The notes beneath the pieces are model-generated. The model saw nothing but the letters and a program-made list of their open reading frames with translations. It did not search any database and had not been told where the DNA came from. Below are positions 4,658 through 61,500 of a stretch of 64,000 bases of DNA, piece after piece. The stretch spans positions 23,954 to 87,953 of the forward strand of contig DASSSZ010000003.1 in the NCBI GenBank assembly GCA_035708165.1, written 5' to 3'. Positions within the stretch are counted from its first letter, which is position 1, and each line of letters starts with the position of its first letter. This stretch comes from Minisyncoccota bacterium (GTDB lineage: Bacteria; Patescibacteriota; Minisyncoccia; Phycocordibacterales; UBA2100). The position numbers and the translations under genes were made by a program.

Positions 4658-5581
4658 ATGGCGGATGATGCGCTCATCATCGAAAGCCTGCGTAAGACGT
4701 ACGCAGGAGGCACCGAGGCGCTGAAGGGCATCTCGCTGACGGTCCCGAGGGGCGATTTCTTCGCGCTCCTCGGCCCGAACGGCGCGGGCAAGTCCACGCT
4801 GATCGGCATCGCGACCGGGCTCGTGACGAAGAGCGGCGGCCGGCTCGTCGTGGACGGCATCGATGCGGACGATGCGCCCGAGCGTGCCAGGCGGCACGTG
4901 GGCGTGGTGCCGCAGGGCCTCAATATCGACTGGTTCGGCAAGGTGCTCGATACGGTCGTGAACCAGGCCGGCTACTACGGCATCTCCCGCGCGCAGGCGC
5001 TGCCGCGCGCGAAGAAGCTCCTCACCGATCTCGGCCTCGGCGATAAGATGCACGTGACCGCGCGCGAGCTCTCCGGCGGCATGCAGCGGCGGCTCATGAT
5101 CGCACGCGCGCTCATCCACGAGCCGACCATCCTCTTCCTCGATGAGCCGACCGCAGGCGTGGACGTCGAGCTGCGACGCGGCATGTGGGAGTACCTGCGC
5201 ACGCTCACCAAGGACGGCGTGACCATCCTCCTCACCACGCACTACCTCGAGGAAGCCGAACAGCTCGCCGGCCACGTGGCGATCATCAACAAGGGGACGA
5301 TCATCGAGCAGGGCCGCATGGCGGAGGTCCTCGCGAAGCTCTCCACGGAAGACCTCATCCTCGAGGTCGAGGCGCCCGCCGTCGGGGGCGCGATCGCCGC
5401 GCTCGCGGGATTCCGCCCGCTCGCCGCAGAAGGCGGCGTGCAGATCACGCTCGACGGCTCGCGCAACGTCACGGATGCCGTGAAGGCGCTCGATGCGAAG
5501 GGCATCGCCGTGCGCACGGCGCGCAGCAAGTCGGGCCGGCTCGAGGAGCTCTTCCTGCGGCTCACGCAGGATACGAAGTAA
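4658..5581 (+). CDS. ABC transporter ATP-binding protein (ABC-2 type)
   Basis: Walker A GPNGAGKST, signature LSGGMQRRL, Walker B ILFLDEPTAGVD. Confidence 0.9.
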   Translation: MADDALIIESLRKTYAGGTEALKGISLTVPRGDFFALLGPNGAGKSTLIGIATGLVTKSGGRLVVDGIDADDAPERARRHVGVVPQGLNIDWFGKVLDTVVNQAGYYGISRAQALPRAKKLLTDLGLGDKMHVTARELSGGMQRRLMIARALIHEPTILFLDEPTAGVDVELRRGMWEYLRTLTKDGVTILLTTHYLEEAEQLAGHVAIINKGTIIEQGRMAEVLAKLSTEDLILEVEAPAVGGAIAALAGFRPLAAEGGVQITLDGSRNVTDAVKALDAKGIAVRTARSKSGRLEELFLRLTQDTK

Positions 5582-5585
5582 CGCT

Positions 5586-6362
5586 ATGGACGCGAAAGGA
5601 ATACTCATCTCGTGGTACACGGTCGTCCGCAAGGACGTGGTGCGCATGCTGCGCATCTGGCCGCAGACCTTCCTGCCGGCAGCCGTCACCTCGGCGCTCA
5701 ACTTCGTCATCTTCGGCGCATTCATCGGCAGCAGGGTGGGGGAGATAGAGGGCGTGCCGTACATCATGTTCATCGTCCCGGGCATCGTGATGCTCTCGGT
5801 CGTCATGAATGCGTACTCGAACGCGGCGTTCGCGATGTTCTCCTCGAAGTTCTTCAATCGCAACATCGACGAGCTCCTGGTCTCGCCGACGCCGCCATGG
5901 GTGATCGTCGCCGGCTTCGTCACGGGCGGCGTGATCCGCGGCGTCCTCACGGGCATCATCGTGCTTCTGGTCGCGCTCTTCTTCACGCATATCCTCATCC
6001 ACAACCTCTTCGTGATCCTCGCGTTCCTGATCCTCACGAGCATCCTCTTCTCGCTCGCCGGGCTCGCGAACGGCGTGTATGCCAAATCGATCGACGGAAT
6101 CAACATCGTCCCGACGTTCATCCTCACGCCGCTCGTCTATCTTGGCGGCATCTTCTACAGCACGCAGGCGCTTCCTGGTGTCTGGGCGGCCGTGACCAAG
6201 GCCGACCCGATCTTCTACGTCATCAACGGATTCCGCTGGGGCTTCCTCGGCACGGCGGATATCCCGCTCTGGGAATCCTTCCTGGTGCTGGGCGCGCTTG
6301 CAGCCGTCTTCTTCGGCCTCACGTGGTACCTGCTCTCCACGGGCCTCGGGCTCAAGCAGTAG
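5586..6362 (+). CDS. ABC-2 type transporter permease
   Basis: ATG at 5586 five nt after ATPase stop. Six TM helices. ABC-2 permease-like. Confidence 0.85.
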   Translation: MDAKGILISWYTVVRKDVVRMLRIWPQTFLPAAVTSALNFVIFGAFIGSRVGEIEGVPYIMFIVPGIVMLSVVMNAYSNAAFAMFSSKFFNRNIDELLVSPTPPWVIVAGFVTGGVIRGVLTGIIVLLVALFFTHILIHNLFVILAFLILTSILFSLAGLANGVYAKSIDGINIVPTFILTPLVYLGGIFYSTQALPGVWAAVTKADPIFYVINGFRWGFLGTADIPLWESFLVLGALAAVFFGLTWYLLSTGLGLKQ

Positions 6363-6370
6363 GCGCAGGC

Positions 6371-7141
6371 ATGACAGGGCATGCTATCCTGACCCTATAC
6401 GCTATGAGCTACGGGACGCTCATCCTCATCGGCATCGCGGCGACGGCGGTAACCGCGCTCGGCGGCTGGCTTGCATTGCGGCTGCGCGACCGGCTGCATC
6501 TCATCATCGGCTTCTCCGCCGGTGCCGTCCTCGGCGTCGCGTTCTTCGACCTGCTGCCCGAGGCATTCAGCCTCGCGGGCGGGCGGGATCCGGCTGCGAC
6601 AGGCGCGCTCCTGGGCTGCGGCTTCCTCATCTACCTGCTCGTGGACCGCATGCTCTCGATGCATGCCGGGCACGGGCATGGGGATCCTGATGAGGCGCAT
6701 GCAGGCGCGCATCGCGGCACGCTCGGCGCTGCGGCGCTCTCGATCCACAGCTTCCTCGACGGCCTCGCCATCGGCTTCTCCTTCCAGGTATCCGCCGCCG
6801 TCGGCGCGATCGTCACGATCGCGGTCCTCACGCATGACTTCTCCGACGGGATCAACACCGTGAATCTCTCGCTCATGGGTGGCAGCGAGCGGCGCGCGCG
6901 CTGGTGGCTGCTCGCTGATGCGCTCGCGCCGCTCCTCGGCATCGGCGCGACCTTCCTCGTGCGCGTGCAGGAAACCGCGCTCGGCATCCTGATCGCGCTC
7001 TTCTGCGGCTTCTTCCTGTATATCGGCGCGGCCGAGCTCGTGCCGGAGAGCCACCATCGGCACCCGCACCTCTGGACGACCGCCATGACCGTCTTGGGAA
7101 TGGCCGTCCTCTTCGCGGCCATCCGCCTCGCATCCGCCTAG
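6371..7141 (+). CDS. ZIP family metal (zinc) transporter
   Basis: HGHGDPDEAH His-rich loop, HSFLDGLAIG and HDFSDG motifs. Start ATG at 6371 inside ORF 5612..7141. Confidence 0.85.
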   Translation: MTGHAILTLYAMSYGTLILIGIAATAVTALGGWLALRLRDRLHLIIGFSAGAVLGVAFFDLLPEAFSLAGGRDPAATGALLGCGFLIYLLVDRMLSMHAGHGHGDPDEAHAGAHRGTLGAAALSIHSFLDGLAIGFSFQVSAAVGAIVTIAVLTHDFSDGINTVNLSLMGGSERRARWWLLADALAPLLGIGATFLVRVQETALGILIALFCGFFLYIGAAELVPESHHRHPHLWTTAMTVLGMAVLFAAIRLASA

Positions 7142-7183
7142 GGGCGATAGCGCGCGGCCATGGCTGCGGTATACTTGCAGCAT

Positions 7184-7651
7184 ATGAAACTATCACGCAC
7201 TGCGATCATCTTGCTCGTCATTATCGGGATCGTGCTCATCGGGGTCGCCATATTCGGCGCCTACCAGGCCTCCAAGGGGTCGATGAACTTGGCCCTCGCG
7301 CAGTGCCTGAAGCAGAAGGGCGTGACCTTCTACGGCGCGTTCTGGTGCCCGCACTGCGCGCAGCAGGAAGCCAATTTCGGCCTTACGCGCGACCAGCTCT
7401 CCTCGATCGGGCTCTACACGGAGTGTTCGACGCCGGACGGACAGGGCCAGACGCAGGTCTGCAAGGATGCCGGCATCGTGAGCTACCCCACGTGGCAGTT
7501 CCCGGACGGCACCCGCGTCGAAGGTGTCCAGGATCTCGCAGCGCTCGCGAGCAAGGCGGGCTGCCCGTTGCCGGCAGGCGCGTCCTCCGGCAGCGCCCCG
7601 GGCGAGGGCGGTGCGTCGAGCGTGCCGGCCTCCACGGCGACCTCGTCCTAG
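7184..7651 (+). CDS. membrane-anchored thioredoxin-like protein (CPHC active site)
   Basis: N-terminal TM anchor. FYGAFWCPHCAQQ thioredoxin-fold CxxC. Confidence 0.7.
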   Translation: MKLSRTAIILLVIIGIVLIGVAIFGAYQASKGSMNLALAQCLKQKGVTFYGAFWCPHCAQQEANFGLTRDQLSSIGLYTECSTPDGQGQTQVCKDAGIVSYPTWQFPDGTRVEGVQDLAALASKAGCPLPAGASSGSAPGEGGASSVPASTATSS

Positions 7652-7652
7652 C

Positions 7653-8207
7653 ATGAGTCCTGCCGCCGAGACCTTGAGCTTCATCCTCGCGCTCGGCGCG
7701 GTTCTCTTGGAGCTCGGCACGCTCGGCATCATCGCGCTTGCGATCATCGAGCGCGGCGGGGCAGGGAAGACGCGCGCAGGCGATGCCATCGCCGCGCTCG
7801 CGATGCCCGCCGCCTTCGTGCTCGCGCTCGTCTCGAGCGCCGTCACGCTCGTGTACTCGGAGCATTTCGGCATCGTGCCGTGCGGCCTCTGCTGGCTGCA
7901 GCGGGCATTCCTTTACCCGCAGGCGTTCATCGCAGGGGCTGCGCTCGTGCTGAAGGACCGCCGCATGGCACCTTGGTACCTCATCGTGCTCTCCATCCCC
8001 GGCGCGCTCATCGCGCTCTATCAGTACTACCTGCAGATGGGCGGCTCTGAGCTCATCAGCTGCCCGGCATCGGCCGGCGACTGCGCGCGCCGCTATATCT
8101 TCGAGCTCGGCTACGTCACATTCCCGATGCTCGCGCTCTCCGTCTTCGCATTCATCATCGCGCTCGTCGCGTTCGCGCGCCTGCGCCCCGCCTCCCATGC
8201 TGCTTAA
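7653..8207 (+). CDS. disulfide bond formation protein DsbB/BdbC-like
   Basis: VPCGLCWLQRAFLYP motif (BdbC-type CxxCW), second Cys pair CPASAGDC, four TM. Starts 2 nt after the thioredoxin-like gene. Confidence 0.7.
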   Translation: MSPAAETLSFILALGAVLLELGTLGIIALAIIERGGAGKTRAGDAIAALAMPAAFVLALVSSAVTLVYSEHFGIVPCGLCWLQRAFLYPQAFIAGAALVLKDRRMAPWYLIVLSIPGALIALYQYYLQMGGSELISCPASAGDCARRYIFELGYVTFPMLALSVFAFIIALVAFARLRPASHAA

Positions 8208-13953: not shown

Positions 13954-14202
13954 GGCGAACGAAGCCCGGCCAATGCCGTGCTTGCGGGCAGGGCGGCGCT
14001 CAGCGCCTCCCTGAGGAGGGTGTGCCTGAGAGCCGCGCGGAGCCGTCTGCCGTTCGAGCCAGACGGAGCGTCCCTTGCGCTCCATGCGCGCATTCCTGCG
14101 CTGCCGCGTGCGTGATCTGCGAGCCATCAGGTCTCTGTACCGGCGCGCAGTATGCCATGCCTCCCGCTCTGCCGGAAGCCTTCGCCGTGCTACGATGCCG
14201 GC

Positions 14203-14871
14203 ATGAAGGACCTCGAAGAGCGAGCGACGCGCGCGAAGCGGATCGTCGCCTACCTCAAGAAGGCATACCCGGAACCGAAGAGCGAGCTTGCCTTCAACGC
14301 GCGCTACCCGTTCCAGTTCCTCGTCGCGGTCATGCTTTCCGCCCAGTGCACCGATAAGGCGGTGAACAAGGTGACCGCGACGCTCTTCAAGAAATACAAG
14401 ACGCCGAAGGATTTCGCGTCTGCCGACCCGGCTGCCTTCGCCGCGGAGATCAGCGCGATCCCGTTCTACAACAACAAGGCGAAGGCAATCATCGGCGCGG
14501 CGAAGAAGATCGTGGCCGAGTACGGCGGGAAGGTCCCGGCCGATCGGGCGGCGCTCGAGAGCCTGCCCGGCGTCGCCTACAAGACCGCGAACGTCGTCAT
14601 GGGCGAGCTCTTCGATATATGGGAGGGCATCCCCACGGATACGCACGTGAAGCGCTTCGCCAAGCGCTTCGACCTCACAGACAACGATGACCTTACGAAG
14701 ATCTCGAAGGATCTCGAGAGCCTCATCCCCAAGAAGGACTGGAAGTACGTGAATAACGGCCTCGTGCTCTACGGACGCTACGTGTGCCCGGCGCGCCCGC
14801 ACCCGTGCGAAGCGCATCCCTTGACGAAGCTCTGGCCGCTGGCCGCGACGCGCTGGCCTAAGGCGAAGTAG
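14203..14871 (+). CDS. nth: endonuclease III-like DNA glycosylase (HhH-GPD)
   Basis: HhH motif LPGVAYKTANVVM, LSAQCTDKAVNKVT. Only two C-terminal Cys (CPARPHPC), so the FeS loop is atypical. Confidence 0.8.
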   Translation: MKDLEERATRAKRIVAYLKKAYPEPKSELAFNARYPFQFLVAVMLSAQCTDKAVNKVTATLFKKYKTPKDFASADPAAFAAEISAIPFYNNKAKAIIGAAKKIVAEYGGKVPADRAALESLPGVAYKTANVVMGELFDIWEGIPTDTHVKRFAKRFDLTDNDDLTKISKDLESLIPKKDWKYVNNGLVLYGRYVCPARPHPCEAHPLTKLWPLAATRWPKAK

Positions 14872-16948: not shown

Positions 16949-17185
16949 ATGAAGCAGCTCCGCCGTTCCCGCGACAATCGCGTCCTCGCCGGCGTCATGG
17001 GCGGCATCGGCCGGTATTTCGATATCGATCCTACGCTCGTCCGGCTCGCCTATCTCCTCATCGCGCTCGCGACAGGCCTTCTGCCGGCGATCATCGCATA
17101 CGTCGTCGCCATCTTCGTCATCCCGGACGATACGCCGACCTACCATGTCATCGACGAGGATCGCGACGACGCGCAGCGCAGCTAG
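16949..17185 (+). CDS. PspC domain-containing protein
   Basis: RSRDNRVLAGVMGGIGRYFDIDPTLVRLAYLL is the PspC N-terminal domain signature. Confidence 0.6.
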   Translation: MKQLRRSRDNRVLAGVMGGIGRYFDIDPTLVRLAYLLIALATGLLPAIIAYVVAIFVIPDDTPTYHVIDEDRDDAQRS

Positions 17186-17993
17186 CGCGGCTCGGATCCG
17201 CCGCCTGCGCGAGACGGTGCTCGCGTACTACCAGGCGCACGGCCGGCACGACCTGCCCTGGCGGCACACCGCCTCGGCGTACCGCATCATGGTCTCGGAG
17301 GTGATGCTCCAGCAGACGCAGGTGCCGCGCGTGATCGAGAAGTACCGTGCATTCACGAAGGCATTCCCGACGGTGCGCGCGCTCGCCGAGGCGCCGCTTG
17401 CGGACGTGCTGCGCGCCTGGAGCGGGCTCGGGTATAACCGGCGCGCAAAGTACCTGCACGAGGCGGCGAAGCGGGTCGTCGCCGAGCACGGCGGCAGGAT
17501 GCCCACGACGGCTGCGGCGCTCGAGGCGCTGCCCGGCATCGGCCCGTATACCGCGCGCGCAATCGCCGCGTTCGCGTACGACGCGCCCGGCACCTTCATC
17601 GAGACGAACATCCGCGCCGTCTTCATCCACCACTGCTTCCCGGGACGCGACGCGGTCGCCGACGCCGAGCTCCTGCCCTTGATCGAGCGGGCAGGGCAGG
17701 GGCTCTCGCCGCGCCTGTGGTACAGCGCCCTCATGGATTACGGCACGCACCTCAAGCAGACGAGCGGCAACGCCGCCCGCCGCAGCAAGCACCACGTGCG
17801 GCAGCAGCGGTTCGAAGGGTCGCTGCGTCAGGCGCGCGGTGCGATCCTGCGCGCGCTCGCGGACGGCCCCGTGCGCGAAGCGGCGCTCCTAGGAGCGCTC
17901 GGGCAGCCGCCGGAGCAGCTCGAGCGCGCGCTCGCGGGGCTTGCGAAAGACGGCCTCATCGCGAAGCAGGGTACCCGCTGGCAGCTCGCCTGA
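17145..17993 (+). CDS. MutY/Nth-like HhH-GPD DNA glycosylase (no FeS or NUDIX C-terminal domain seen)
   Basis: WRHTASAYRIMVSEVMLQQTQVPRV, GLGYNRRAKYLHEAAK and ALPGIGPYTARAI match MutY N-terminal catalytic domain motifs. Confidence 0.75.
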   Translation: MSSTRIATTRSAASAARIRRLRETVLAYYQAHGRHDLPWRHTASAYRIMVSEVMLQQTQVPRVIEKYRAFTKAFPTVRALAEAPLADVLRAWSGLGYNRRAKYLHEAAKRVVAEHGGRMPTTAAALEALPGIGPYTARAIAAFAYDAPGTFIETNIRAVFIHHCFPGRDAVADAELLPLIERAGQGLSPRLWYSALMDYGTHLKQTSGNAARRSKHHVRQQRFEGSLRQARGAILRALADGPVREAALLGALGQPPEQLERALAGLAKDGLIAKQGTRWQLA

Positions 17994-32733: not shown

Positions 32734-33072
32734 TGCGCTGCGCTGGGCGATCGCGCTGCAGCTTCCGCTGCGGTGAGGAAAGTCCGGACACGCGCGTCGA
32801 AAGACGCAGCAGGGTAGCGGGTAACGCCCGTCCGCCGCGAGGCGCGAGGTGCGAGCAGAGACGCCGGAGCAGAAATGCGAAGGATCCCTCCGGGGATAGC
32901 CGCTCTGGAAACAGAGCGGGTGAAACGGCTAAATCCTTACCTGCGTGCAAGGCCGTGCCCAGCCTGGCTGGGAGTGCCGCCCGAGGCGGCTGGCGACAGC
33001 CGTCCCAGACACATGGTCGCCCATCCTGCATCCGCAGGTGGACAGAATCCGGCTTACAGGCGCAGCGCGAAG
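32734..33072 (+). ncRNA. rnpB: RNase P RNA (bacterial type A)
   Basis: Conserved elements GAGGAAAGTCCGG (P4 5' strand), GGGTAACGCC, GGTGAAACGG, ACAGAATCCGGCTTA (P4 3' strand). P1 pairing GCGCTGCGCTG/CAGGCGCAGCGC. Confidence 0.8.
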
Positions 33073-41010: not shown

Positions 41011-41081
41011 GCGGGATTCGTTTAGTGGCAGGACGCGACCTTCCCAAGGTTGAGACAGGAGTTCGATTCTCCTATCCCGCA
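41011..41081 (+). tRNA. tRNA-Gly (anticodon CCC)
   Basis: Acceptor GCGGGAT/ATCCCGC, anticodon arm CGACC-TTCCCAA-GGTTG, T-arm AGGAG-TTCGATT-CTCCT. Confidence 0.8.
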
Positions 41082-41130
41082 CAAATCGGCCACTCATGAA
41101 AGCGACAGCTTTCATGAGAGCTGCCGTTCG

Positions 41131-41150
41131 TAGCGGGAGAGGAGAATCGA
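41131..41150. repeat. inverted partial copy of tRNA-Gly T-arm (GGAGAGGAGAATCGAAAGCC)
   Basis: Reverse complement CGGCTTTCGATTCTCCTCTCCC matches tRNA-Gly TTCGATTCTCCT. Confidence 0.5.
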
Positions 41151-41241
41151 AAGCCGCAGCACCGTGGAGCGGGGCGAGGCCGGGTCGGCGCGCTTGGTAT
41201 TTGAGGGCCCGCAGGGCACTCATATACGTAGCGACGGTGAC

Positions 41242-41288
41242 CGATTCTTCTATCCCGCACACATCGGCTACTCATGAAAGCGGCAGCT
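41242..41288 (+). repeat. about 47-bp imperfect direct repeat of tRNA-Gly 3' end plus 30 nt downstream flank
   Basis: CGATTCTTCTATCCCGCACACATCGGCTACTCATGAAAGCGGCAGCT versus 41064..41110 CGATTCTCCTATCCCGCACAAATCGGCCACTCATGAAAGCGACAGCT (4 mismatches). Confidence 0.6.
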
Positions 41289-41339
41289 TCCGGTGGATAG
41301 CCGTTCGCTGCCTGTGCGGGCGCACGGTATACTTCCTGC

Positions 41340-41663
41340 ATGGATCCTGAAGATCGCGACCTCCTCGAGCGCACCTTCAAGCTCGCACGCGACAACAACC
41401 GCATGCTGCAGGCGATGAACCGCGCCGCGCTCTTCAATGGCCTCTTCCGCGTGCTGGCATGGATCGCGGTGCTCGCGCTCGCGGCGTGGCTCTATTTCAA
41501 CTATCTCGGGCCGGTCCTCAATTCCGCGACGCACGCGCTCAATCAGGCGCAGACCGCGAGCAGCAACGCCAGCTCAGAGCTGCAGTCGATCCAGAATGCC
41601 ATTTCCGCCATCCAGCACGTCATCCCGAGCTTCAGCACGAGCACGGCGACGAGCACGCAGTAG
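41340..41663 (+). CDS. hypothetical membrane protein
   Basis: 107 aa, one TM. No domain recognised. Confidence 0.45.
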   Translation: MDPEDRDLLERTFKLARDNNRMLQAMNRAALFNGLFRVLAWIAVLALAAWLYFNYLGPVLNSATHALNQAQTASSNASSELQSIQNAISAIQHVIPSFSTSTATSTQ

Positions 41664-49487: not shown

Positions 49488-50153
49488 TTACTTTTTCGCT
49501 GCCGCGTTCCCTGGCAGCGTCATATCGAACTGGTCCCAGAGGTAGCGGCATGCGACCGTGCGGTAGGGCTGCCACGGGCGGGCGAGTGCTTCCATGCGCG
49601 CCGGCGATGGCGGCGTTCGCATGCCGAAGAGCACCTGGAAGCCTTTCCGGATGGCGAGGTCGCCCGTCGGGAGCACGTCCGGCCGGTGCAGGTAGAACAT
49701 AAGGAACATGTCGGCGCTCCATCGCCCGATCCCTTTGACGGCGATGAGGTGCTGGCGCACGGTCTCGTCGTCCCATTCCGCGAGGCCTTTCGCATTGATC
49801 GTGCCGTCGAGGAACTTCTCGGCGAGATCGCGCAGGTAGGCGGCTTTCGCGTGCGAGAGGCCTGCGGCGCGCAGCTCTTCCTCGGGTAACGCGAGCATCG
49901 CTTTCGGCGTCGGATGCTTCCTGGGGAAGCTCGAAAGCAGGCGCCCGAGGATGGTATCGGCCGCCTTGCCGGAAAGCTGCTGGAAGACGATGGATTCGAC
50001 GAGCGCGTAGAACGGATCGCGCGGCGTGCCGTGGCTCGTCGCGCGCGAGAAGACCGGCTTCGGGTACCGCTTGATCAATGGCGCGAGGTGCGGATCCTTG
50101 CGCAGGTGCCGCAGCGCGCTCGCAAGATCGATTTCCGTGATAAGGGCGGCCAT
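49488..50153 (-). CDS. DNA-3-methyladenine glycosylase II-like (AlkA, HhH-GPD)
   Basis: HhH-GPD core VKGIGRWSADMFLMFYLHRPDVLPTGDLAIRKG with catalytic Asp. Start MAALITE at 50153. Confidence 0.8.
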   Translation of the reverse strand: MAALITEIDLASALRHLRKDPHLAPLIKRYPKPVFSRATSHGTPRDPFYALVESIVFQQLSGKAADTILGRLLSSFPRKHPTPKAMLALPEEELRAAGLSHAKAAYLRDLAEKFLDGTINAKGLAEWDDETVRQHLIAVKGIGRWSADMFLMFYLHRPDVLPTGDLAIRKGFQVLFGMRTPPSPARMEALARPWQPYRTVACRYLWDQFDMTLPGNAAAKK

Positions 50154-50157
50154 CGTG

Positions 50158-50460
50158 CTACCGCTTGTCGGCGATAAAGACGATGATGACGATCGCGAGC
50201 ATGATGCCGATGAACCACGCGAGCGTGGTGAGGAAGAACCGCAGCGCCTCATCCGCCTTCCCGCCGAGGAGCATGCGTACCGGTTGGTAGAAGAAGAGCA
50301 TTCCCATGACCGACACCGAGCAGACGAGGAGCGACAGCACGATGATCGCGCCGAGGAGCCCGTTATCGAGCTCGAGGCCCGAGGTAAGGCCGATCAGGAG
50401 CACGATCCCGCAGATGTACGCTGCGGCGATACCGGCACTGGAGAACGGCGTAAGCTTCAT
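50158..50460 (-). CDS. hypothetical small membrane protein
   Basis: 100 aa, three TM. GGAGG RBS before ATG 50460. Confidence 0.5.
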   Translation of the reverse strand: MKLTPFSSAGIAAAYICGIVLLIGLTSGLELDNGLLGAIIVLSLLVCSVSVMGMLFFYQPVRMLLGGKADEALRFFLTTLAWFIGIMLAIVIIVFIADKR

Positions 50461-55339: not shown

Positions 55340-55590
55340 ACTACTAGATGAGTGGGGTGAGATAATTAACGCTATTCCCGATGATACCACCATTAAGGGA
55401 GCTGCACGGAGCGGCAGCGAAGCCCTGTGGATACGGGGGGTGGCCGGCGCGGCTCTGTCCGAGTCCGAAGTTTCTATCTGCGGGCTACTCGGGATTCAGA
55501 CTTTGCAGGTCAAGCCCTGTAAGGGTATTTTGGCACCTTCTCGCGGAGTTATTTGAGGTGTTCAGGTCGCAAGCATAAAATCAGTCCATC

Positions 55591-56268
55591 ATGAGTATCA
55601 TACGTTTTGCAGTGGGAACCCGAGATGATCTACGCTCTTCCGTATGGCGCTTATGGGCTAACAAGAACGACTTATATCTAGCAGCCCGTTCGCATGCAAT
55701 GATTTCAAAATTTAGTTTTCACGAGTCTGGGAAGTATCGATTCGCAGTGAATAGCGCGGTTGAACGAGAAAACGATGCGAGTGATCGGGCGTTGTATAAA
55801 TGGACACGCCCATCCGAATTCGCCCCCGGTTGGACTCGTTGTTTCGGAATACTCGTTCCACAAAGAGTTACTCGATCACCTTTCGGAATCAGCTTCGATG
55901 AGAATAAAGCAGTTGAGCTTGTTAGCCCCCCTGCCAAGGGTAAGAAGGTTATTTTCAACATCATCCTTTCCCACAAAGCGGCTAAGCCCGAGCATGTAAT
56001 CCGCGGCTCAGCTCACAAAATAAAGATTTTGGGGCGGATCGAGATGCTGCGAGAGATTGCATGGCTAGTCACTTTTGAGGATGATTTTGGTCCCACGGAG
56101 GAGGCAGTGATTCAGGACCATTTCGACAAGCTAAAAATCCATCTCAAACCAGGGAGCACTGGAGAAGGGATGCGGTACACCTTCCTTCATGCTATTGAAC
56201 AGGGCGAGACACCCTTTCTAATTGACATAGAGCTCGGCAGGGAAAATCTAGATATCTCCGCTGTCTAA
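55591..56268 (+). CDS. hypothetical protein (island orphan)
   Basis: 225-aa ORF with island codon usage. No recognised domain. Confidence 0.5.
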   Translation: MSIIRFAVGTRDDLRSSVWRLWANKNDLYLAARSHAMISKFSFHESGKYRFAVNSAVERENDASDRALYKWTRPSEFAPGWTRCFGILVPQRVTRSPFGISFDENKAVELVSPPAKGKKVIFNIILSHKAAKPEHVIRGSAHKIKILGRIEMLREIAWLVTFEDDFGPTEEAVIQDHFDKLKIHLKPGSTGEGMRYTFLHAIEQGETPFLIDIELGRENLDISAV

Positions 56269-56300
56269 GTGCCCGGGTCTGTCCGATCAAAAGTACTGAC

Positions 56301-56314
56301 TGCGGAGAGGGAGG
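56301..56314 (-). repeat. direct partial copy of tRNA-Ser 3' acceptor end (TGCGGAGAGGGAGG)
   Basis: Identical to 56485..56498, the 3' terminus of tRNA-Ser. Confidence 0.5.
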
Positions 56315-56410
56315 ATCCGTCCTGACGGTCACTAAGCTCGCTGCGCTCGCTAAGTGCCGCGGGACACGGCTCGCCGGCAAGCAGCCTCCCTACAGTCGGC
56401 TCTTGTATAC

Positions 56411-56434
56411 CGGCTCCGCCGTTCGAATCCCTCC
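56411..56434 (+). repeat. inverted partial copy of tRNA-Ser T-loop plus acceptor 3' strand
   Basis: GTTCGAATCCCTCCCTCTCTCGCA versus tRNA-Ser GTTCGAATCCCTCCCTCTCCGCA (one inserted T). Lacks 5' T-stem, so not a functional tRNA. Confidence 0.55.
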
Positions 56435-56486
56435 CTCTCTCGCAACATGCAACAAACCCGAAGCTTCGCTTCGAGTTTGGCAGTTG

Positions 56487-56573
56487 CGGAGAGGGAGGGA
56501 TTCGAACCCTCGAGACCGTTACCAGCCTGCCGCATTTCGAGTGCGGTGCCTTCGACCACTCAGCCACCTCTCC
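56487..56573 (-). tRNA. tRNA-Ser (anticodon CGA), type II long variable arm
   Basis: Reverse complement: acceptor GGAGAGG/CCTCTCC, anticodon arm CCGCA-CTCGAAA-TGCGG, long variable arm, T-arm GAGGG-TTCGAAT-CCCTC. Confidence 0.8.
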
Positions 56574-56672: not shown

Positions 56673-56744
56673 GGCCCTATCGTCTAATGGTTAGGACAGC
56701 GCCCTTTCACGGCGTAAATCCGGGTTCGATTCCCGGTAGGGTCA
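56673..56744 (+). tRNA. tRNA-Glu (anticodon TTC)
   Basis: Acceptor GGCCCTA/TAGGGTC (one G-U), anticodon arm GCGCC-CTTTCAC-GGCGT, T-arm CCGGG-TTCGATT-CCCGG. Confidence 0.7.
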
Positions 56745-58129
56745 CAAGAAGCAACAAAACGGCTTTGCAGAGCTGCAAATCCTTTTTTGCACTTATAATC
56801 CAACGTATTTTCTGTCAGGGTGAGTTCGGAAAAAATCACACGAAGTATTTTGTCTTTCTCATGCGGTTCGGCCTCTGAGTAAACAACTGCGGCGTTTTTT
56901 AACAGTTCGGAAAGCAAAATTACATCTTTGATGGTTTCGCGCATCGCCACGTCCGAGGCGTTTTCATTATCTTTGAGTTGATTGAGTTCGTTTGTGAGCC
57001 GAGCTTCTTCTGCGACGTATCCTTCGGGTGTGTACACGCCAGTTTTCAGAAGCACGAGACGATTGCCGTTGAGATACGCCAGCTCCTCGCGGATTTGCTT
57101 CTTCTTGCGCTCGGCCGCATCGAGCTGACTCATACGCTTTGCCTCCAACAATGCAATGTCGGTATTCGCCCGCGCGTCAATTTCCGCAAGCTCCTCCTCG
57201 GTAAACGAAAGCTTGGTAATCAATTCCTCGGTCTTCGCTGTCAGGTAGTCGAAGTTGAAGCTCTTGAGCGAGTTGGTGCACTCGCGGGAGCAACGAGCGC
57301 CGTAGTACAAAATCCCTTTCTTTACATATGGAGTGTAGACGCGACCACAAACGGCACAGAAAGCGAATCCTCGCAGCGGATGCTCTAGCACCTCGATGTA
57401 GTGAACACTCTTGTTGCGCTTCGCAAGCCGCTCCTGCACACGATTGAAAAGCTCCTCGGGAATAATTGCCTCGTGGCTGGTGCTCGGTATCCACTCACGA
57501 TTCTCATCGAGTACCTTGCCTGTGTAATAGCGGTTCGTCAGGATTTTGTGGATGGTGTTGTACGTCGGTAGGCGGCTTATCGCTTCAATATCAACTCGTA
57601 CATCGTCTTCCTCCTCAAGCAACATCTCCTCTTTTGTTCGACGACGGCGCATCGGTGGCATAGTAAATCCCTGCTCGATAGCCCATCGCGCAAGGTCGTG
57701 CAGGCTCCATTCGCCAGTATCGGCAAGCTTCGCAAGCTGCAAAATAATAGAAGCGCGAACAGGGTCTTTAGGCTTCCAGTCCATATTGCCCTCGTTGAGG
57801 TAGCCAACAGGCGCTTTGTTAGTGGAGAGTCCGCGCGAACGGGCGTTTTGAATGGTAAGGGTGACTTTCTCGCGGGTCACGCGAGAGTGGTGCTCCGAGA
57901 ACATACCGTCTATGTCCATATGCAGTTCGCCAGAGCTGGTCTTGTCGTACTGTGCGAACGCGAAGCGGATATCCGCTCCCGACTTCATTAGTTTACGCAG
58001 AATAGTATCGTCGCCCTTGTTGCGGCTCGCTCTATCCCAGCAGAGAAATATCGCGCCCCTGAAGTAGCCCTTGCTTACAAACTCCGCGAGGCGATAAAAC
58101 TTTGGGCGCTCGACTCGGTACTGCACCAT
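56684..58129 (-). CDS. large serine recombinase, 5'-truncated (catalytic Ser-containing N-terminus absent)
   Basis: Matches distal resolvase catalytic domain (LCWDRASRNKGD, MFSEHHSRVTREKV, PVGYL), recombinase domain, zinc-ribbon (CAVCGRVY...CSRECT), coiled-coil. About 60 N-terminal aa including YxRVSTxxQ not encoded upstream in any frame. 3' end runs antisense through tRNA-Glu. Confidence 0.75.
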   Translation of the reverse strand: MVQYRVERPKFYRLAEFVSKGYFRGAIFLCWDRASRNKGDDTILRKLMKSGADIRFAFAQYDKTSSGELHMDIDGMFSEHHSRVTREKVTLTIQNARSRGLSTNKAPVGYLNEGNMDWKPKDPVRASIILQLAKLADTGEWSLHDLARWAIEQGFTMPPMRRRRTKEEMLLEEEDDVRVDIEAISRLPTYNTIHKILTNRYYTGKVLDENREWIPSTSHEAIIPEELFNRVQERLAKRNKSVHYIEVLEHPLRGFAFCAVCGRVYTPYVKKGILYYGARCSRECTNSLKSFNFDYLTAKTEELITKLSFTEEELAEIDARANTDIALLEAKRMSQLDAAERKKKQIREELAYLNGNRLVLLKTGVYTPEGYVAEEARLTNELNQLKDNENASDVAMRETIKDVILLSELLKNAAVVYSEAEPHEKDKILRVIFSELTLTENTLDYKCKKGFAALQSRFVASCDPTGNRTRIYAVKGRCPNH

Positions 58130-58197
58130 ACCTTCCTCGAAAGTGAGGGCAGTATCGGGTTATTTCAATTGTCCGCTCGGGGCTGTAAAGTTGAGCG

Positions 58198-59121
58198 ATG
58201 GCACGCCCGCTCGGTAGCATTTCCACAAACATCGAACCAAAGAGACTCAAGCGGCTTCTGGCTCTTGAAAAAGAAAGGCGCGGTGTAGCAGAGGATAAGC
58301 TAGTATTCGTGGGCATAGCGAATCTCGCCAGCTATTACTGGTGCGCCATGCACTCGGTTCTAAAAAGTAGAGCGGATGAGGCGATGTTTTTCGGCGCGTA
58401 TCTCGCAGACCGCATCCGCTACAGCAAGGAGCTTGGCCTGATTCGGTCGCTGCCAAGGACGGACGCGGAGCTGCTACGTGTCGGCGAAGAAATAACTTTC
58501 GAGGATGTTGAGAAGTTGCTCGCAAAAAGGCCTGTCGCGTCTAGCGACGTCAGTCTGGACGCGTACAGTTTCGGTGACAGCAACGGAGGGATGCAGATGG
58601 TGATAAATCCGAACGTCTCTGCCGAACGCAGAAAGTCGCTGGAGAGCGATGCGCGACGCAATAAATTGAAGATTACCGACCTGGAGAAAGTGCCCATCGT
58701 CCGCGGCAACATGATGCACTGGAATAATCCCGAGAAGTACCGCTCTATACGCTGGAACTTCCAAGCAGGTGTGTATGTCATCGTCGGCGTACCTGATGGC
58801 ATAACGGACGATAGCGTATATGAGTACAAAACAACCAAAAGCGACTTCCTCGCGGGATTCGTGAAGCCAGTCGCTTTCGCACAAGCAGACCTGTACGGGC
58901 ACTTCTTCAGACGGTCAAAAAAACGTGTGCAGATACAGGTCATCGAAACGAGCAAAACCCAAACGTGGGAAGAACCGATAGACGAGACGCGGGTAGGAAC
59001 GTTGGTACACGACTTTGCACAGGTGGATGCAGGAAAGCTTTTCCCGCACCCTCCGAAAAGCTGGAAATGCGCCAGGTGCGAGATATGCGGCTTCGGAAAA
59101 CTCTGTCAAAAACAACAATGA
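58198..59121 (+). CDS. Cas4-like PD-(D/E)XK nuclease with 4Fe-4S Cys cluster (DUF83/RecB-nuclease family)
   Basis: N-terminal Cys (YYWCAMH), motif II D (VPDGITDD), motif III EYK (VYEYKTTK), QxxxY (QADLYGHFF), C-terminal CARCEICGFGKLC. Confidence 0.65.
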   Translation: MARPLGSISTNIEPKRLKRLLALEKERRGVAEDKLVFVGIANLASYYWCAMHSVLKSRADEAMFFGAYLADRIRYSKELGLIRSLPRTDAELLRVGEEITFEDVEKLLAKRPVASSDVSLDAYSFGDSNGGMQMVINPNVSAERRKSLESDARRNKLKITDLEKVPIVRGNMMHWNNPEKYRSIRWNFQAGVYVIVGVPDGITDDSVYEYKTTKSDFLAGFVKPVAFAQADLYGHFFRRSKKRVQIQVIETSKTQTWEEPIDETRVGTLVHDFAQVDAGKLFPHPPKSWKCARCEICGFGKLCQKQQ

Positions 59122-59732
59122 GCAAGATAAAATCCCATCTCACCATCGGCAACAAGTTCCTCGGCTCGCTTCTGTACTTCAAGGATGCGAATGGGCGGGG
59201 TCATCTCAAACTGTCGTTCAAAAACAAAATTGCGGGCTTCAACAAGGGCACGGACGTGCCGACCACGTTGCCTGTGCCCGTACAGTCGCCCGACCCCGTA
59301 AGCTTGGATGTTTCCTACAAGTTTCCCGATAGCTTGCTGGAGGTGAAGAAAGTTGCGGGCGGCAAAACCGAGCGCGAGTTCTATAACGTGCCACTACCTG
59401 TCTCCAATCTTTTATTTATGATTCGCATCAAGGACTGGCATCTCCTCGACGATGACCAACCTGCGCCAAATCCGCTGGTGCTCGCGCCTCCCGATGGGAG
59501 CAAGAGCGTCGCGGTCATCTTTTCGTTTCTCGGTGCAAATGGGCTGCCATTCGTACCTACTGGATACGTCTGCCCGCAAGGGATGGGTACGATATCTGTC
59601 CCCGAAAGTCCGCTCAATACTTTTTGCATCGGCATTGCGGCTGACCCCTCGAACCAGAGCGCCAACGGCTTCCAAGTGCAAATCCCGTTTCCTAAAGCAG
59701 AACAAGACGGGTTTTTAGGTTTGAAGCAATAA
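59118..59732 (+). CDS. hypothetical protein, translationally coupled to Cas4-like gene
   Basis: ATG 59118 overlaps the upstream stop (ATGA). 204 aa. No domain recognised. Confidence 0.55.
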   Translation: MSKIKSHLTIGNKFLGSLLYFKDANGRGHLKLSFKNKIAGFNKGTDVPTTLPVPVQSPDPVSLDVSYKFPDSLLEVKKVAGGKTEREFYNVPLPVSNLLFMIRIKDWHLLDDDQPAPNPLVLAPPDGSKSVAVIFSFLGANGLPFVPTGYVCPQGMGTISVPESPLNTFCIGIAADPSNQSANGFQVQIPFPKAEQDGFLGLKQ

Positions 59733-59750
59733 AGAATCTATAATAATTAT

Positions 59751-60209
59751 ATGGACGCATTTTTCATATTCTCGGCTCAATACTTCTTTGTCTTGTCATT
59801 GATTATTCTCGGTGCGTACTTCCTCACGCGAAAATGGCCTGCACAAAAACGGATGACGTTTTTTGCAGTGCCCGCAGGCCTGCTCGCCTATGTGCTCGGG
59901 CTGCTCGGCAATTACCTCTACTATGACCCGCGTCCCTTTGTTGCAGGACACTTCATGCCGCTCATCGCACACGCGGCCGATAACGGGTTCCCCTCCGACC
60001 ATACCTTGCTCGTTTCAACGCTCGCTGCGGTGGGCATGTACTGGAACAAATGGCTTGGAGTAATACTTTGGATTATTGCTGTTCTCGTCGCGTTTTCCCG
60101 CATATATGTCGGCCTGCATCATCCGATTGATGTCCTCGGAAGCATGGCGATTGCCCTAGTCGCGGTTTCTGCATGGCGTATAGCAATGAACTATGTTTGG
60201 AAAGCATAA
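59751..60209 (+). CDS. PAP2 family phosphatase
   Basis: Motifs KxxxxxxRP-like, PSDH, SRIYVGLHHPIDV. Confidence 0.8.
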   Translation: MDAFFIFSAQYFFVLSLIILGAYFLTRKWPAQKRMTFFAVPAGLLAYVLGLLGNYLYYDPRPFVAGHFMPLIAHAADNGFPSDHTLLVSTLAAVGMYWNKWLGVILWIIAVLVAFSRIYVGLHHPIDVLGSMAIALVAVSAWRIAMNYVWKA

Positions 60210-60864
60210 GTTTTTGAAGATTGCTTCCCTCGTTGCCGTCCTTCTTGCTTTGGGTGTAATCACTTTTTTTATACTGCTTCGGCCAGGCCCGCTTTTCTCT
60301 ACACTTCCTGCTACCACAACCGCCTCTTTCGGGCATACTGGCGACCCTATCAACATCGCCGTCGTGGGAGACAAGGGTACCATCGTGTCCGCGTTTCTCG
60401 CCGCCCATTGGCTCGTACCAGACCCGATTACTGCCTCAAGCACCGTGCGGATTGCAGAAACGAGCATCGCCAATTCCGCATACCCAACCGCTCCAGTAAG
60501 CAGCCTGTATCTATTCGGTAGAGCGCAGGATTTGGCATTTGAACTGCCCACCGACTCTGTACGACAGCGACACCACGTGCGGCTATGGCAAACTACAATA
60601 ACAATCTCTGGTAAGCCACTCTGGGTAGGTTCGGCAACGTACGATTCGGACATTGAGTTGAGCGGAACAACCGCCTTGCCGACACATCATATTTCTCCGA
60701 ACGTAGACAGTGAGCGCGACTTTGTGGCGCAATCATTTATGGACGCTGGACTCATGCAGAGCGAGACATCCAACCGCATCAGTTATCCGACGCTCTGGGG
60801 ATTCAATGGCGGCGGCGATTGGTATTTTGATGATGGACTCGTGCGTATGCTCGTATTGCGATAA
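60193..60864 (+). CDS. LssY C-terminal domain-like protein (usually fused to PAP2)
   Basis: N-terminal TM, INIAVVGDKGTIVSAFLAAHWLVPDP ... HHVRLWQT ... similar to LssY_C. Overlaps the PAP2 ORF by 17 nt in another frame. Confidence 0.55.
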   Translation: MFGKHKFLKIASLVAVLLALGVITFFILLRPGPLFSTLPATTTASFGHTGDPINIAVVGDKGTIVSAFLAAHWLVPDPITASSTVRIAETSIANSAYPTAPVSSLYLFGRAQDLAFELPTDSVRQRHHVRLWQTTITISGKPLWVGSATYDSDIELSGTTALPTHHISPNVDSERDFVAQSFMDAGLMQSETSNRISYPTLWGFNGGGDWYFDDGLVRMLVLR

Positions 60865-60873
60865 TGTGAAGTT

Positions 60874-61377
60874 ATGACCCTTGCGTCTCTCAAAAACTAC
60901 CTGCTTGAAGAAAAACACATGCACCTGTTCTTCGTGGTGAGTCTCTGGGCGAAGGGTCTATTCGCCCTGTCGGAAATAATCGGAGGCATCGCCGCGTTCT
61001 TCATAACCAAGCAGTTCCTCGTAGACATCGCACTATGGATTACCAAGCACGAGTTCGCTGAAGACCCGCACGATGTTATTGCCAACTATTTCCTACATTC
61101 GGTACAGAATCTATCAATCGGTGCACAGGACTTTGCGGCCATATATCTGCTTGGGCACGGCGTCATCAAGCTCTGGCTCATCATTGGACTTCTGCGGGAG
61201 CGGCTCTGGTACTATCCAACAGCCCTCGTCGTATTCGGACTTTTCATTGTCTACCAGCTTTACCGATATACATTCACTCACTCTATCTGGCTTTTGCTCA
61301 TCACGGTCATAGACCTCATTGTCATCGGCCTCACCTGGCACGAGTGGGGATACTTACGAAAGCACAGAATCCAATAG
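60874..61377 (+). CDS. hypothetical membrane protein (DUF2127-like)
   Basis: 167 aa, four TM. Last gene before the GC rise. Confidence 0.45.
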   Translation: MTLASLKNYLLEEKHMHLFFVVSLWAKGLFALSEIIGGIAAFFITKQFLVDIALWITKHEFAEDPHDVIANYFLHSVQNLSIGAQDFAAIYLLGHGVIKLWLIIGLLRERLWYYPTALVVFGLFIVYQLYRYTFTHSIWLLLITVIDLIVIGLTWHEWGYLRKHRIQ

Positions 61378-61500
61378 CTAGACGACCACCAGCTCTCGCA
61401 ACTCTTGGATGCTCAAGCCGATGGCGGCTCGGTATTGTCCGAGTTCGGAAAGCCACGTAAACTGGTCACAAACGGCTCGCTGTGCGTCCGCGCTGGGCAG

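Follow-up and report, generated by a model that had tools for sequence, protein, structure and literature searches.

Introduction

To our knowledge, recombination that depends on the structure of a single DNA strand is so far known from Vibrio phages and from integrons. The attC sites of integrons carry R'' and R' boxes (RYYYAAC and GTTRRRY) and a pattern of extrahelical bases. In the ends of IS200/IS605 elements and in group I and group II introns, an internal guide is complementary to the insertion flank and co-varies with the target. Among tRNA-targeting integrative elements, a class with a T-loop sublocation was reportedly distinguished by Williams in 2002. In CTXphi, two inverted dif-like sites of attP(+), located 90 bp apart, pair with each other in the plus strand and thereby make up the recombination substrate (PMC4246890). 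Once CTXphi is integrated, a hybrid att stands at each of its two ends, one of them preceded by an inverted att and a spacer; the integration is irreversible and tandem arrays are found (PMC4246890). Copies of the Rickettsia palindromic elements (RPEs) lie in frame within protein genes (reviewed in PMC10969869).

The stretch of DNA analyzed here (the window, 64,000 nucleotides) contains six tRNA genes, and its housekeeping genes include those for LepA, LeuRS, TsaD, GroEL, RNase J and RNase P RNA. It belongs to a MAG of Candidatus Paceibacterota (Parcubacteria, CPR), the product of ORF 41340-41663 being 100% identical to the NCBI protein VFL98_02140. At two of the tRNA genes, tRNA-Gly(CCC) and tRNA-Ser(CGA), partial copies of the tRNA 3' end form the closing stem (P1) of a conserved folded element of 115-130 bases. 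The two loci are likely to be copies of a conserved, mobile, structured element associated with tRNA 3' ends, and the family is widespread in Paceibacteria, the ultra-small Parcubacteria of the CPR. We found no paper that describes this element, and a structured element in this position behind tRNA genes is apparently undescribed. It lacks defining features of the T-loop integrative elements (integrase and cargo), of MITEs (conserved terminal repeats and fixed target-site duplications) and of attC (the R''/R' boxes), and its target differs from the dif site of CTXphi.

Results

Partial copies of the 3' ends of tRNA-Gly and tRNA-Ser

The initial annotation had reported inverted and direct partial copies of the tRNA 3' end at both genes. 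We compared the last 26 nt of each tRNA of the window with the 320 nt downstream in a shuffle test. For tRNA-Gly, the direct and inverted scores were both 16 as compared with a null maximum of 11 (p<0.0005). For tRNA-Ser, the direct score was 13 (p=0.0005) and the inverted score was 19 (p<0.0005). Both kinds of copy are therefore present at both genes with p<=0.0005, and the scores of the Arg, Phe, Val and Glu tRNAs of the window were at the null level. The two loci had been described as mirror images. The pattern is indeed common to both, while the mirroring merely results from the position of tRNA-Ser on the minus strand. Read in the sense of the tRNA, both loci have the order of tRNA, hairpin, inverted copy, a structured core of ~100 nt and direct copy (Table 1).

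Table 1. Positions of the tRNA genes, partial copies and structural parts at the two loci of the window
Feature	Position	Strand	Basis
tRNA-Gly(CCC), intact	41011..41082	+	ARAGORN; Rfam tRNA, 58 bits
Gly direct repeat copy 1 (T-loop to tRNA 3' end, with trailer)	41064..41111	+	Repeat search; local alignment
Gly hairpin CTCATGAAAGC-GACA-GCTTTCATGAG	41093..41118	+	Sequence; fold z = -6.7
Gly inverted copy (guide), P1 5' strand	41133..41151	+	Repeat search; covariance-model alignment
Gly module P2 hairpin	41153..41180	+	RNA fold, DNA fold, covariance-model alignment
Gly module P3 long hairpin, conserved base GUCG...GGUGAC	41184..41241	+	RNA and DNA folds, covariance-model alignment
Gly direct repeat copy 2; P1 3' strand = 41242-41258	41242..41289	+	Repeat search, alignments
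tRNA-Ser(CGA), intact	56486..56573	-	ARAGORN; Rfam
Hairpin immediately 3' of tRNA-Ser	56454..56478	-	Sequence; fold z = -8.2
Ser inverted copy (guide), P1 5' strand	56421..56443	-	Repeat search, covariance-model alignment
Ser core: P2 ~56366-56420, P3 ~56319-56364	56315..56420	-	Covariance models; DNA fold
Ser direct copy 2 (CCTCCCTCTCCGCA), P1 3' strand	56301..56314	-	Repeat search, local alignment

At tRNA-Gly, the direct repeat covers 48 nt with 92% identity at a spacing of 178, close to the 47 bp first noted at 41242..41288. It is composed of the last 19 nt of the tRNA, starting from C56 of the T-loop at 41064, and 29 nt of the flank, and the trailer of copy 1 includes the left arm and the loop of the adjacent hairpin. 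Copy 2 differs by a C-to-T change that preserves a G.U pair with the guide. Most simply, copy 2 is the displaced original 3' end of the tRNA together with its trailer. The inverted T-arm copy, previously placed at 41131..41150, has a core that matches tRNA-Gly at 18 of 19 positions; this guide is the complement of the T-loop, the T-stem 3' strand and the acceptor 3' strand. When extended, the inverted arms (41062-41095 and 41118-41151) span 34 nt with 76% identity and are symmetric about the hairpin, so that the quasi-palindrome of 41062-41151 folds as an RNA hairpin of ~90 nt centered on it. No T-run follows the hairpin and the terminator scan was negative, which means that it is not a canonical intrinsic terminator. 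In the P2 hairpin of the Gly module, the outer pairs are GCC/GGC, the internal loop is GCA/GA (GGA/GA in the family consensus) and the inner stem is GCACCG/CGGGGC. The P3 hairpin abuts copy 2 without a linker.

At tRNA-Ser, the direct copy of 14 nt was confirmed as an exact match to the tRNA 3' end (14/14) with a spacing of 184, and it starts at the T-stem 3' strand, i.e. after the T-loop. The inverted copy is real as well, although the position first given (56411-56434) was ~10 nt off. The correct segment, 56421-56439, matches at 19 of 19 positions and is extended by a 1-nt bulge or indel and three more pairs to 56443, making the guide complementary to the T-loop, the T-stem 3' strand and the acceptor 3' strand of tRNA-Ser. 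The hairpin next to the tRNA is the center of a ~90-nt palindrome (fold z as for the hairpin in Table 1), and the terminator scan found no intrinsic terminator there. The core contains the P2 motif GGC-GGA-...-GA-GCC. From the guide to copy 2 the distance is 90 nt in the Gly locus and 106 nt in the Ser locus. The GC content of the modules (0.63-0.65; 0.62-0.65 for the Ser core) is host-like, that of the window being 65%. Outside the tRNA-derived parts, the pairwise similarity of the inter-repeat DNA between the Gly and Ser loci of the window is not significant. The only links between these two copies are the family model with its fold and a copy found at the tRNA-Phe gene of a relative (L099).

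A conserved three-way junction

The partial copies, for which a 12-bp pairing with each other had first been noted at tRNA-Ser, form helix P1 of a three-way junction on the tRNA-sense strand, with the inverted copy paired to the direct copy. P1 is followed by J1/2 with the sequence (A)AAG, by P2 with its GGA/GA internal loop, by J2/3 with the sequence GG(G) and by the long P3 hairpin, whose conserved base GUCGNG...YGUGAC directly abuts the direct copy. Minimum free energy folds were computed for 13 elements of different genomes, and each gave the same three-way junction.

Eight copies, seven of other genomes and the window Gly copy, went into a covariance model (R1) that left out the window Ser copy. 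This model found 25 copies, including window Gly with 55.5 bits and window Ser with 24.5 bits (E=0.005 over 1.7 Mb). Run over ~0.86 Mb of Paceibacteria DNA, the R2 model yielded 36 matches at E<=1, of which 34 are confident, and raised the score of window Ser to 41 bits. Besides the Gly and Ser copies, no significant covariance-model score was obtained in the rest of the window, even with the filters off. In the alignment of 25 sequences, 90.9% of the cells pair as compared with 63.6% in shuffles, double changes occur at 27 of 28 pairs and slid controls reach at most 50.5%; since the alignment is model-fitted, these counts lean toward the structure of the model, yet the independent single-sequence folds agree with that structure. 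A G.U pair is conserved in 17 of the 25 copies, which assigns the structure to the tRNA-sense strand. Folding with DNA parameters reproduced the junction on the sense strand with z = -7.9 for Gly and -4.2 for Ser, and the antisense strand of Gly gave -3.5 versus the -7.9 of its sense strand.

The family has no match in Rfam 15. Only tRNA and RNase P reached the gathering threshold, and the search at E<=10 added nothing except spurious miRNA-hairpin matches at three modules. The hammerhead ribozyme is also a three-way junction, with tandem G.A pairs and the core CUGANGA ... GAAA. It was rejected on account of the junctions (A)AAG, GG(G) and 0-1 nt, the absence of CUGANGA from the alignment and the absence of an Rfam match. 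A tRNA-primer binding site was rejected because there is no complement to CCA and copy 2 has the trailer of the gene, not CCA. The hairpin ribozyme, HDV-like ribozymes, group II intron domain V, the K-turn, retron ncRNA, IS110 bridge RNA and a pseudo-tRNA on the opposite strand were rejected on sequence inspection.

Occurrence at tRNA genes of related genomes

We fetched 52 syntenic Parcubacteria loci carrying 131 tRNAs. As these loci were picked around TsaD, near tRNAs, the absolute frequencies are biased, while the tRNA enrichment is not. With this bias in the counts, an inverted T-loop copy at +50 to +70 was found in ~25 of the 131 tRNAs and a perfect direct copy of 14-26 nt (70 nt in L004) at at least 12. 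The direct copies start at T-loop position 54-58 and finish at or just past the tRNA end, except for the tRNA-Ser genes of the window and of L120, where the repeat begins at the T-stem 3' strand. The spacing of the repeats is 113-279 with a mode near 175-185, and the 130-170 nt between the direct repeats are non-coding structured DNA. Motifs recur in the DNA between the copies. Upstream of the 131 tRNAs there were zero direct copies, and among 137 tRNAs none had the tRNA end, hairpin, inverted copy and direct copy without the core. Of the 34 confident R2 matches, 17 lie within 110 nt downstream of a tRNA on the same strand, the expected number being 0.4 (P=4e-24).

The initial annotation had proposed a comparison of related genomes for occupied and empty sites, and both kinds are present. 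In L099, where the neighboring protein is 78% identical, no unit stands behind tRNA-Gly, and other sequence follows this gene directly. The tRNA-Phe gene of L099 is occupied by a full unit whose direct repeat measures 22 nt, and the tRNA-Phe gene of the window is empty. The P3 of this Phe copy is 80% identical to that of window Gly over 64 nt, and its core is 79% identical to that of window Ser over 95 nt, with ~92% in P2. The P1 stems of the Phe copy and the window copies are entirely different, each matched to the local tRNA. Modules were also found at orthologous positions. In L101-L106 (neighboring protein 61% identical) the module occupies the orthologous tRNA-Gly site, and the tRNA-Ser(CGA)/ORF225 locus of L120 has the same layout with a 16/16 direct copy of its own tRNA end. 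The Gly modules (window versus L101) and the Ser modules (window versus L120) look orthologous, with tRNA-derived parts that track their own tRNA. This retention with tRNA-tracking stems could equally result from gene conversion or from a function for the host. In L043, copy 2 is a better pairing partner for the guide than the tRNA is, suggesting that P1 itself is maintained. Homologues of ORF225 occur in varied contexts, so that this gene is not diagnostic of an island.

A short sub-type is devoid of the GGGGUC/GUGAC base and has its own long stem. Its copies are located after housekeeping genes and in frame inside TsaD on either strand. Five copies lie inside TsaD ORFs of relatives and are translated through; one of them amounts to an insert of ~30 amino acids relative to the orthologues. 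The window has no intragenic copy. The TsaD and intergenic copies have no direct repeat of the tRNA type, and no target-site duplication is evident at the TsaD insertion. As these copies have their own stems and lack the tRNA-type repeat, a second mode of spread must exist.

A second core (type B), unrelated to the first, was found in other genomes at tRNA-Glu, Gly, Ser and Arg, where it is flanked by an inverted copy of the T-loop and by a direct copy. The same layout around an unrelated core implies that the layout reflects a mechanism and not one particular RNA. In L001 a tandem array consists of tRNA-Glu, a module, a cargo ORF, displaced pseudo-3' ends and a second module, with units delimited by CGATTC cores. 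In AT-rich relatives, the hairpins equivalent to that between tRNA and module carry T-runs and are strong intrinsic terminators. GTDB genomes contained no close relative, the best TsaD matches being Parcubacteria MAGs at <=52% identity. Exact-protein look-ups with ORFs of the window gave no record. A gapped pattern of the core gave 46 matches in viral contigs, all by chance and none with a covariance-model match. One metagenome scan with a 20-mer from P3 gave nine chance matches, with no tRNA, module or close relative.

Discussion

Possible mechanism of insertion

The reading that we favor, as somewhat more likely than not, is that each locus carries a single small structured element, non-coding and non-autonomous, inserted in the T-loop of the tRNA gene. 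The insertion would be a Campbell-type, site-specific event. The incoming DNA would bring a replacement for the segment from the T-loop to the 3' end plus the hairpin, so that the tRNA would stay functional, and the original 3' end would be displaced and persist as the direct repeat. A T-loop insertion with an element-borne 3' end would explain the extent of the repeats, the tandem arrays and the coexistence of occupied and empty sites. The initial annotation had taken the repeats as a signature of site-specific integration. Its tie to insertion at tRNA genes and the T-loop extent still hold, whereas scars of ordinary islands do not account for the loci. Of the two explanations it offered, repeated integration and excision or deletion is contradicted by the 113-280-bp layout and the covarying core at more than 20 tRNA loci of unrelated Paceibacteria assemblies, and a tRNA-targeting miniature element is the one that the evidence favors.

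How such an insertion would proceed is a matter for more tentative proposals. Specifically, a folded-att mechanism is possible, if on the doubtful side. The order of att, short body, inverted att, structured spacer of ~100 nt and att could be the footprint of integration through a folded single-strand att. P1 would mimic the duplex T-loop/T-stem 3' half-site. P3 and P1, stacked coaxially without a linker, would form one pseudo-duplex, with the conserved P3 base replacing the T-stem 5' half-site and serving as the element's own half-site for a putative recombinase supplied in trans. This role in a pseudo-duplex would explain the presence of that base in the tRNA-adjacent sub-type. No recombinase or transposase gene was found in or next to the elements, and the only recombinase in the window is a truncated, degraded large serine recombinase at tRNA-Glu. 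Pfam searches of the cargo ORFs (ORF486 and ORF128 of L001, ORF225 and ORF307 of the window) revealed no recombinase. Two observations stand against the simplest forms of the proposal. The hairpin and trailer between tRNA and guide are locus-specific and do not travel with the core, which is not what a simple model of one circle moving as a unit would predict, and the segment from copy 1 to the guide has, in several loci, a branched fold instead of a simple palindrome. A fold-back template switch at the hairpin, with synthesis taken up again at the palindromic TCGA of the T-loop, may also play a part in the insertion. It is also conceivable, but rather unlikely, that the module is a programmable guide-bearing RNA or single-stranded DNA that inserts or processes itself, either as a ribozyme class or as a structure-guided recombination substrate. 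Both would be new, and the target would be set by P1 pairing and rewritten on each move.

Alternative explanations

The module might instead be a structured RNA of benefit to the host, transcribed with the tRNA or just after it and acting in cis or in trans, an explanation that we consider unlikely. By pairing with the 3' half of the tRNA, such an RNA could serve in processing or as a decoy; it could also be a small ribozyme that carries its own guide, or an attenuator alternating between the A-A' hairpin and P1. The guide can pair with either copy 1, in the 90-nt hairpin, or copy 2. The strong covariation, the conserved sense-strand G.U pair and the preference for the sense-strand fold at the Gly locus are all consistent with an RNA, as are the retention of the module at the orthologous tRNA-Gly (L101-L106) and tRNA-Ser/ORF225 (L120) loci and the fact that guide and copy 2 follow the tRNA sequence of each genome. 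It is difficult, however, to reconcile a host RNA with copies that lie on either strand within TsaD reading frames and are read through in translation, with others scattered after housekeeping genes, and with an occupancy that varies between relatives. In addition, a strong intrinsic terminator separates tRNA and module in AT-rich relatives, the modules of the window have no promoter-like site, and the layout is common to two unrelated cores.

That the loci are ordinary scars, left when tRNA-integrating islands or prophages of kilobase size lost their interior and brought attL and attR to ~180 bp of each other, would fit the classic extent of the direct repeats from T-loop to tRNA 3' end, the low-GC foreign DNA beside tRNA-Ser (55,480-56,290) and tRNA-Glu (56,750-61,400), the degraded large serine recombinase of the tRNA-Glu island and the tandem accretion with cargo genes in L001. 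Independent deletions, on the other hand, would not yield the same unit of 113-280 bp with a conserved and covarying core at more than 20 loci in different genomes, the GC content of the modules is host-like, every unit is free of an integrase remnant and the inverted copy is left unexplained, which makes this origin quite improbable. Still less credible is a pure replication error in which no mobile element took part. A fold-back template switch at the hairpin, with synthesis resuming at the palindromic T-loop (TTCGAA or TCGA), would then have produced the series of tRNA end, hairpin, inverted copy and direct copy. Both palindromes of the window have the hairpin loop as their axis of symmetry and T54 as their end, the Gly direct repeat extends 4 nt beyond the hairpin loop (AAGC-GACA-GCTT) as snap-back priming predicts, and the junctions fall within the self-complementary TCGA of the T-loop. 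A template switch cannot, however, make a core of 90-110 nt that is homologous between loci and genomes, and it leaves the TsaD and intergenic copies unexplained. Chance similarity would be helped by the 65% GC of the window and by a T-arm that is partly self-complementary. Given the shuffle results for all four repeats against the null level of the other four tRNAs, and the same architecture in dozens of independent assemblies, chance or an assembly artefact has a negligible probability.

Significance

CPR (Patescibacteria) genomes are tiny and had been considered poor in repeats. A covariation-supported element that colonizes the 3' side of many tRNA genes, and even the essential TsaD, adds an unreported component to the dynamics of these genomes, and the modules account for "partial tRNA" matches and odd insertions in Paceibacteria annotations. 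If the folded-att reading is true, structure-dependent single-strand recombination would extend to tRNA genes, beyond Vibrio phages and integrons, and the module would be a minimal cis element of ~100 nt with a specificity stem matching its target, testable in vitro and potentially engineerable. If instead the module is a functional RNA, it would represent a new tRNA-linked RNA class. A guide-bearing module, if it is one, would be a natural retargetable integration system of ~100 nt in CPR bacteria.

Comparison with known systems

As in CTXphi-type IMEX, the window loci show the same order of sites, a spacer of 90-110 nt and folding favored on one strand. Unlike CTXphi, the element has the tRNA T-loop and not dif as its target, its unit measures ~115-280 bp without phage genes, and its spacer is a conserved three-way junction instead of an arbitrary loop. 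The T-loop-class elements and their deleted cis-mobilizable derivatives (CIMEs) share with it a repeat that runs from the T-loop to or past the tRNA 3' end and an element-borne 3' end that reconstitutes the tRNA, and tRNA-targeting integrative elements resemble it in tandem accretion with displaced pseudo-3' ends, as in L001. The element differs from them in having neither integrase nor cargo between the repeats, in being 10-100 times smaller, in its internal inverted copy of the att core and its covarying core, and in an attR duplex without the usual inverted core-binding repeat.

Similar to MITEs and RPEs, the copies are small, non-autonomous, multi-copy stable stem-loops that have no transposase of their own and occur in frame in TsaD. 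In contrast to MITEs, the arms of P1 vary between copies (Gly-, Ser-, Phe-, Val- or Glu-specific, or of the GCTTTTG type) and the direct repeats are tRNA-derived and variable (14-70 nt) and not short, fixed target-site duplications. The part conserved is a branched core with a stem matched to the neighboring tRNA, unlike in either MITEs or RPEs, and no parent IS was found in ~0.9 Mb.

With integron attC the element shares a site defined by its single-strand fold, central parts that vary in length and cassette-like arrays (L001). It differs from attC in having no R''/R' consensus or extrahelical-base pattern, its ends being ...TCGAAAG and GTGAC|CGATTC, and in a reversed conservation, where the core is conserved and the stem variable. 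The window has no IntI gene. The guide is reminiscent of IS200/IS605 and of introns in that an element sequence is complementary to the insertion flank and co-varies with the target; it differs from theirs in its length of 9-24 nt and in pairing with the 3' flank only. TnpA, reverse transcriptase and a recognizable ribozyme core are absent, and no Rfam intron or ribozyme model matched. By analogy, the element would work most like a folded site of the CTXphi or attC type combined with tRNA integration of the T-loop class, and it would spread like an RPE or a MITE.

Modules within TsaD genes

Modules of the short type, which lack the GGGGUC/GUGAC base and carry a long stem of their own, were found within the TsaD coding sequence at five loci from related Parcubacteria assemblies (table). 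They lie on either strand, the reading frame stays open through them, and the module-bearing TsaD proteins are 405-432 aa long. The TsaD protein of L035 has a 30-aa insert relative to the orthologues of the window, L003 and L024. The TsaD gene of the window itself has no short-type copy inside.

Coordinates of modules, cores and genes (L-numbered loci are in their own coordinates)
Feature	Locus	Position	Strand	Remark
Short-type module in TsaD	L035	4560-4638
Short-type module in TsaD	L031	2756-2838
Short-type module in TsaD	L039	10873-10951
Short-type module in TsaD	L036	1861-1939
Short-type module in TsaD	L051	4015-4087
Module upstream of tRNA-Phe	L033	16640-16724	-
Module upstream of tRNA-Phe	L040	17688-17775	+
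Module upstream of tRNA-Phe	L007	about 8800
Type B core	L008	9197
Type B core	L010	6050
Type B cores	L014	173, 9253
Type B core	L018	9568
Type B core	L025	9379
Type B core	L031	1835
Type B core	L039	8792
Large serine recombinase ORF	window	56684-58129	-	Resolvase + Recombinase domains
ORF of 225-aa protein	window	55591-56268	+	in low-GC segment
RNase P RNA, bacterial class A	window	32735-33072	+	120 bits
HhH-GPD glycosylase gene	window	14152-14871
HhH-GPD glycosylase gene	window	17145-17993
HhH-GPD glycosylase gene	window	49488-50252

Variant arrangements at tRNA genes

At L033, L040 and L007 the module lies upstream of tRNA-Phe; further upstream, 10-11 nt of the tRNA 5' end are duplicated (GCCGAGATAG), and an inverted tRNA copy is absent. 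Together, these features suggest a mode of insertion on the 5' side, which would place the module in the pre-tRNA leader. At L101, a P3 fragment of another module (ATTTTTCAGCAGGGAAATATCCGTGA; 3926-3960) comes straight after the direct copy in the tRNA-Gly module, which suggests nested or successive insertions. The duplication at L050 (18013-18131) is of a different, simpler kind: only 43 nt downstream of tRNA-Gly(CCC), its T-loop-to-3' end recurs in direct orientation without mismatch over 25 nt, with neither inverted copy nor core.

Type B, a second family of cores (...GCCCGATTGAG...CCAATTGGG GTACTGAAACTGTAAG|TTCGA), is placed as in the module family: it is flanked by an inverted T-loop copy and by a direct copy of the tRNA 3' end beginning at G53 or T54. 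It went undetected by R1 and R2, the covariance models of the module family.

Behind tRNA-Glu of L001 lies a cassette-like tandem array (5100-7930, minus strand), in the order module, 486-aa ORF, displaced tRNA 3' end, 128-aa ORF, degenerate 3' end, second module and again a tRNA 3' end, the last carrying a duplicate of the same downstream flank. HTH-like units are repeated in the 486-aa product, which has a zinc ribbon at its C terminus.

Low-GC segments and other genes of the window

A low-GC island (~56,750-61,400; GC 0.43-0.55 versus 0.65 for the host) is located directly 3' of tRNA-Glu(UUC). The large serine recombinase ORF, which belongs to this island, lacks the N-terminal catalytic part and has stop codons upstream; its final ~20 codons are formed by the tRNA-Glu 3' end read in antisense, and PAP2 and DUF2127 genes come after it. 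At the far boundary of the island, no duplicate of that tRNA end was found.

The window, part of a small genome, also carries an RNase P RNA gene and, within its 64 kb, three separate HhH-GPD base-excision glycosylase genes.

Between the direct copy of the Ser module and host DNA lies an 800-bp low-GC stretch (55,480-56,290), with the 7-nt GAATCCC in minus sense at the GC boundary near 55,491. The 225-aa protein encoded there matches no Pfam family and has 83%-identical homologues in other Patescibacteria. At L120 a homologue likewise adjoins tRNA-Ser(CGA), with the inverted and direct repeats laid out as in the window and a core much shorter than that of the window Ser module.
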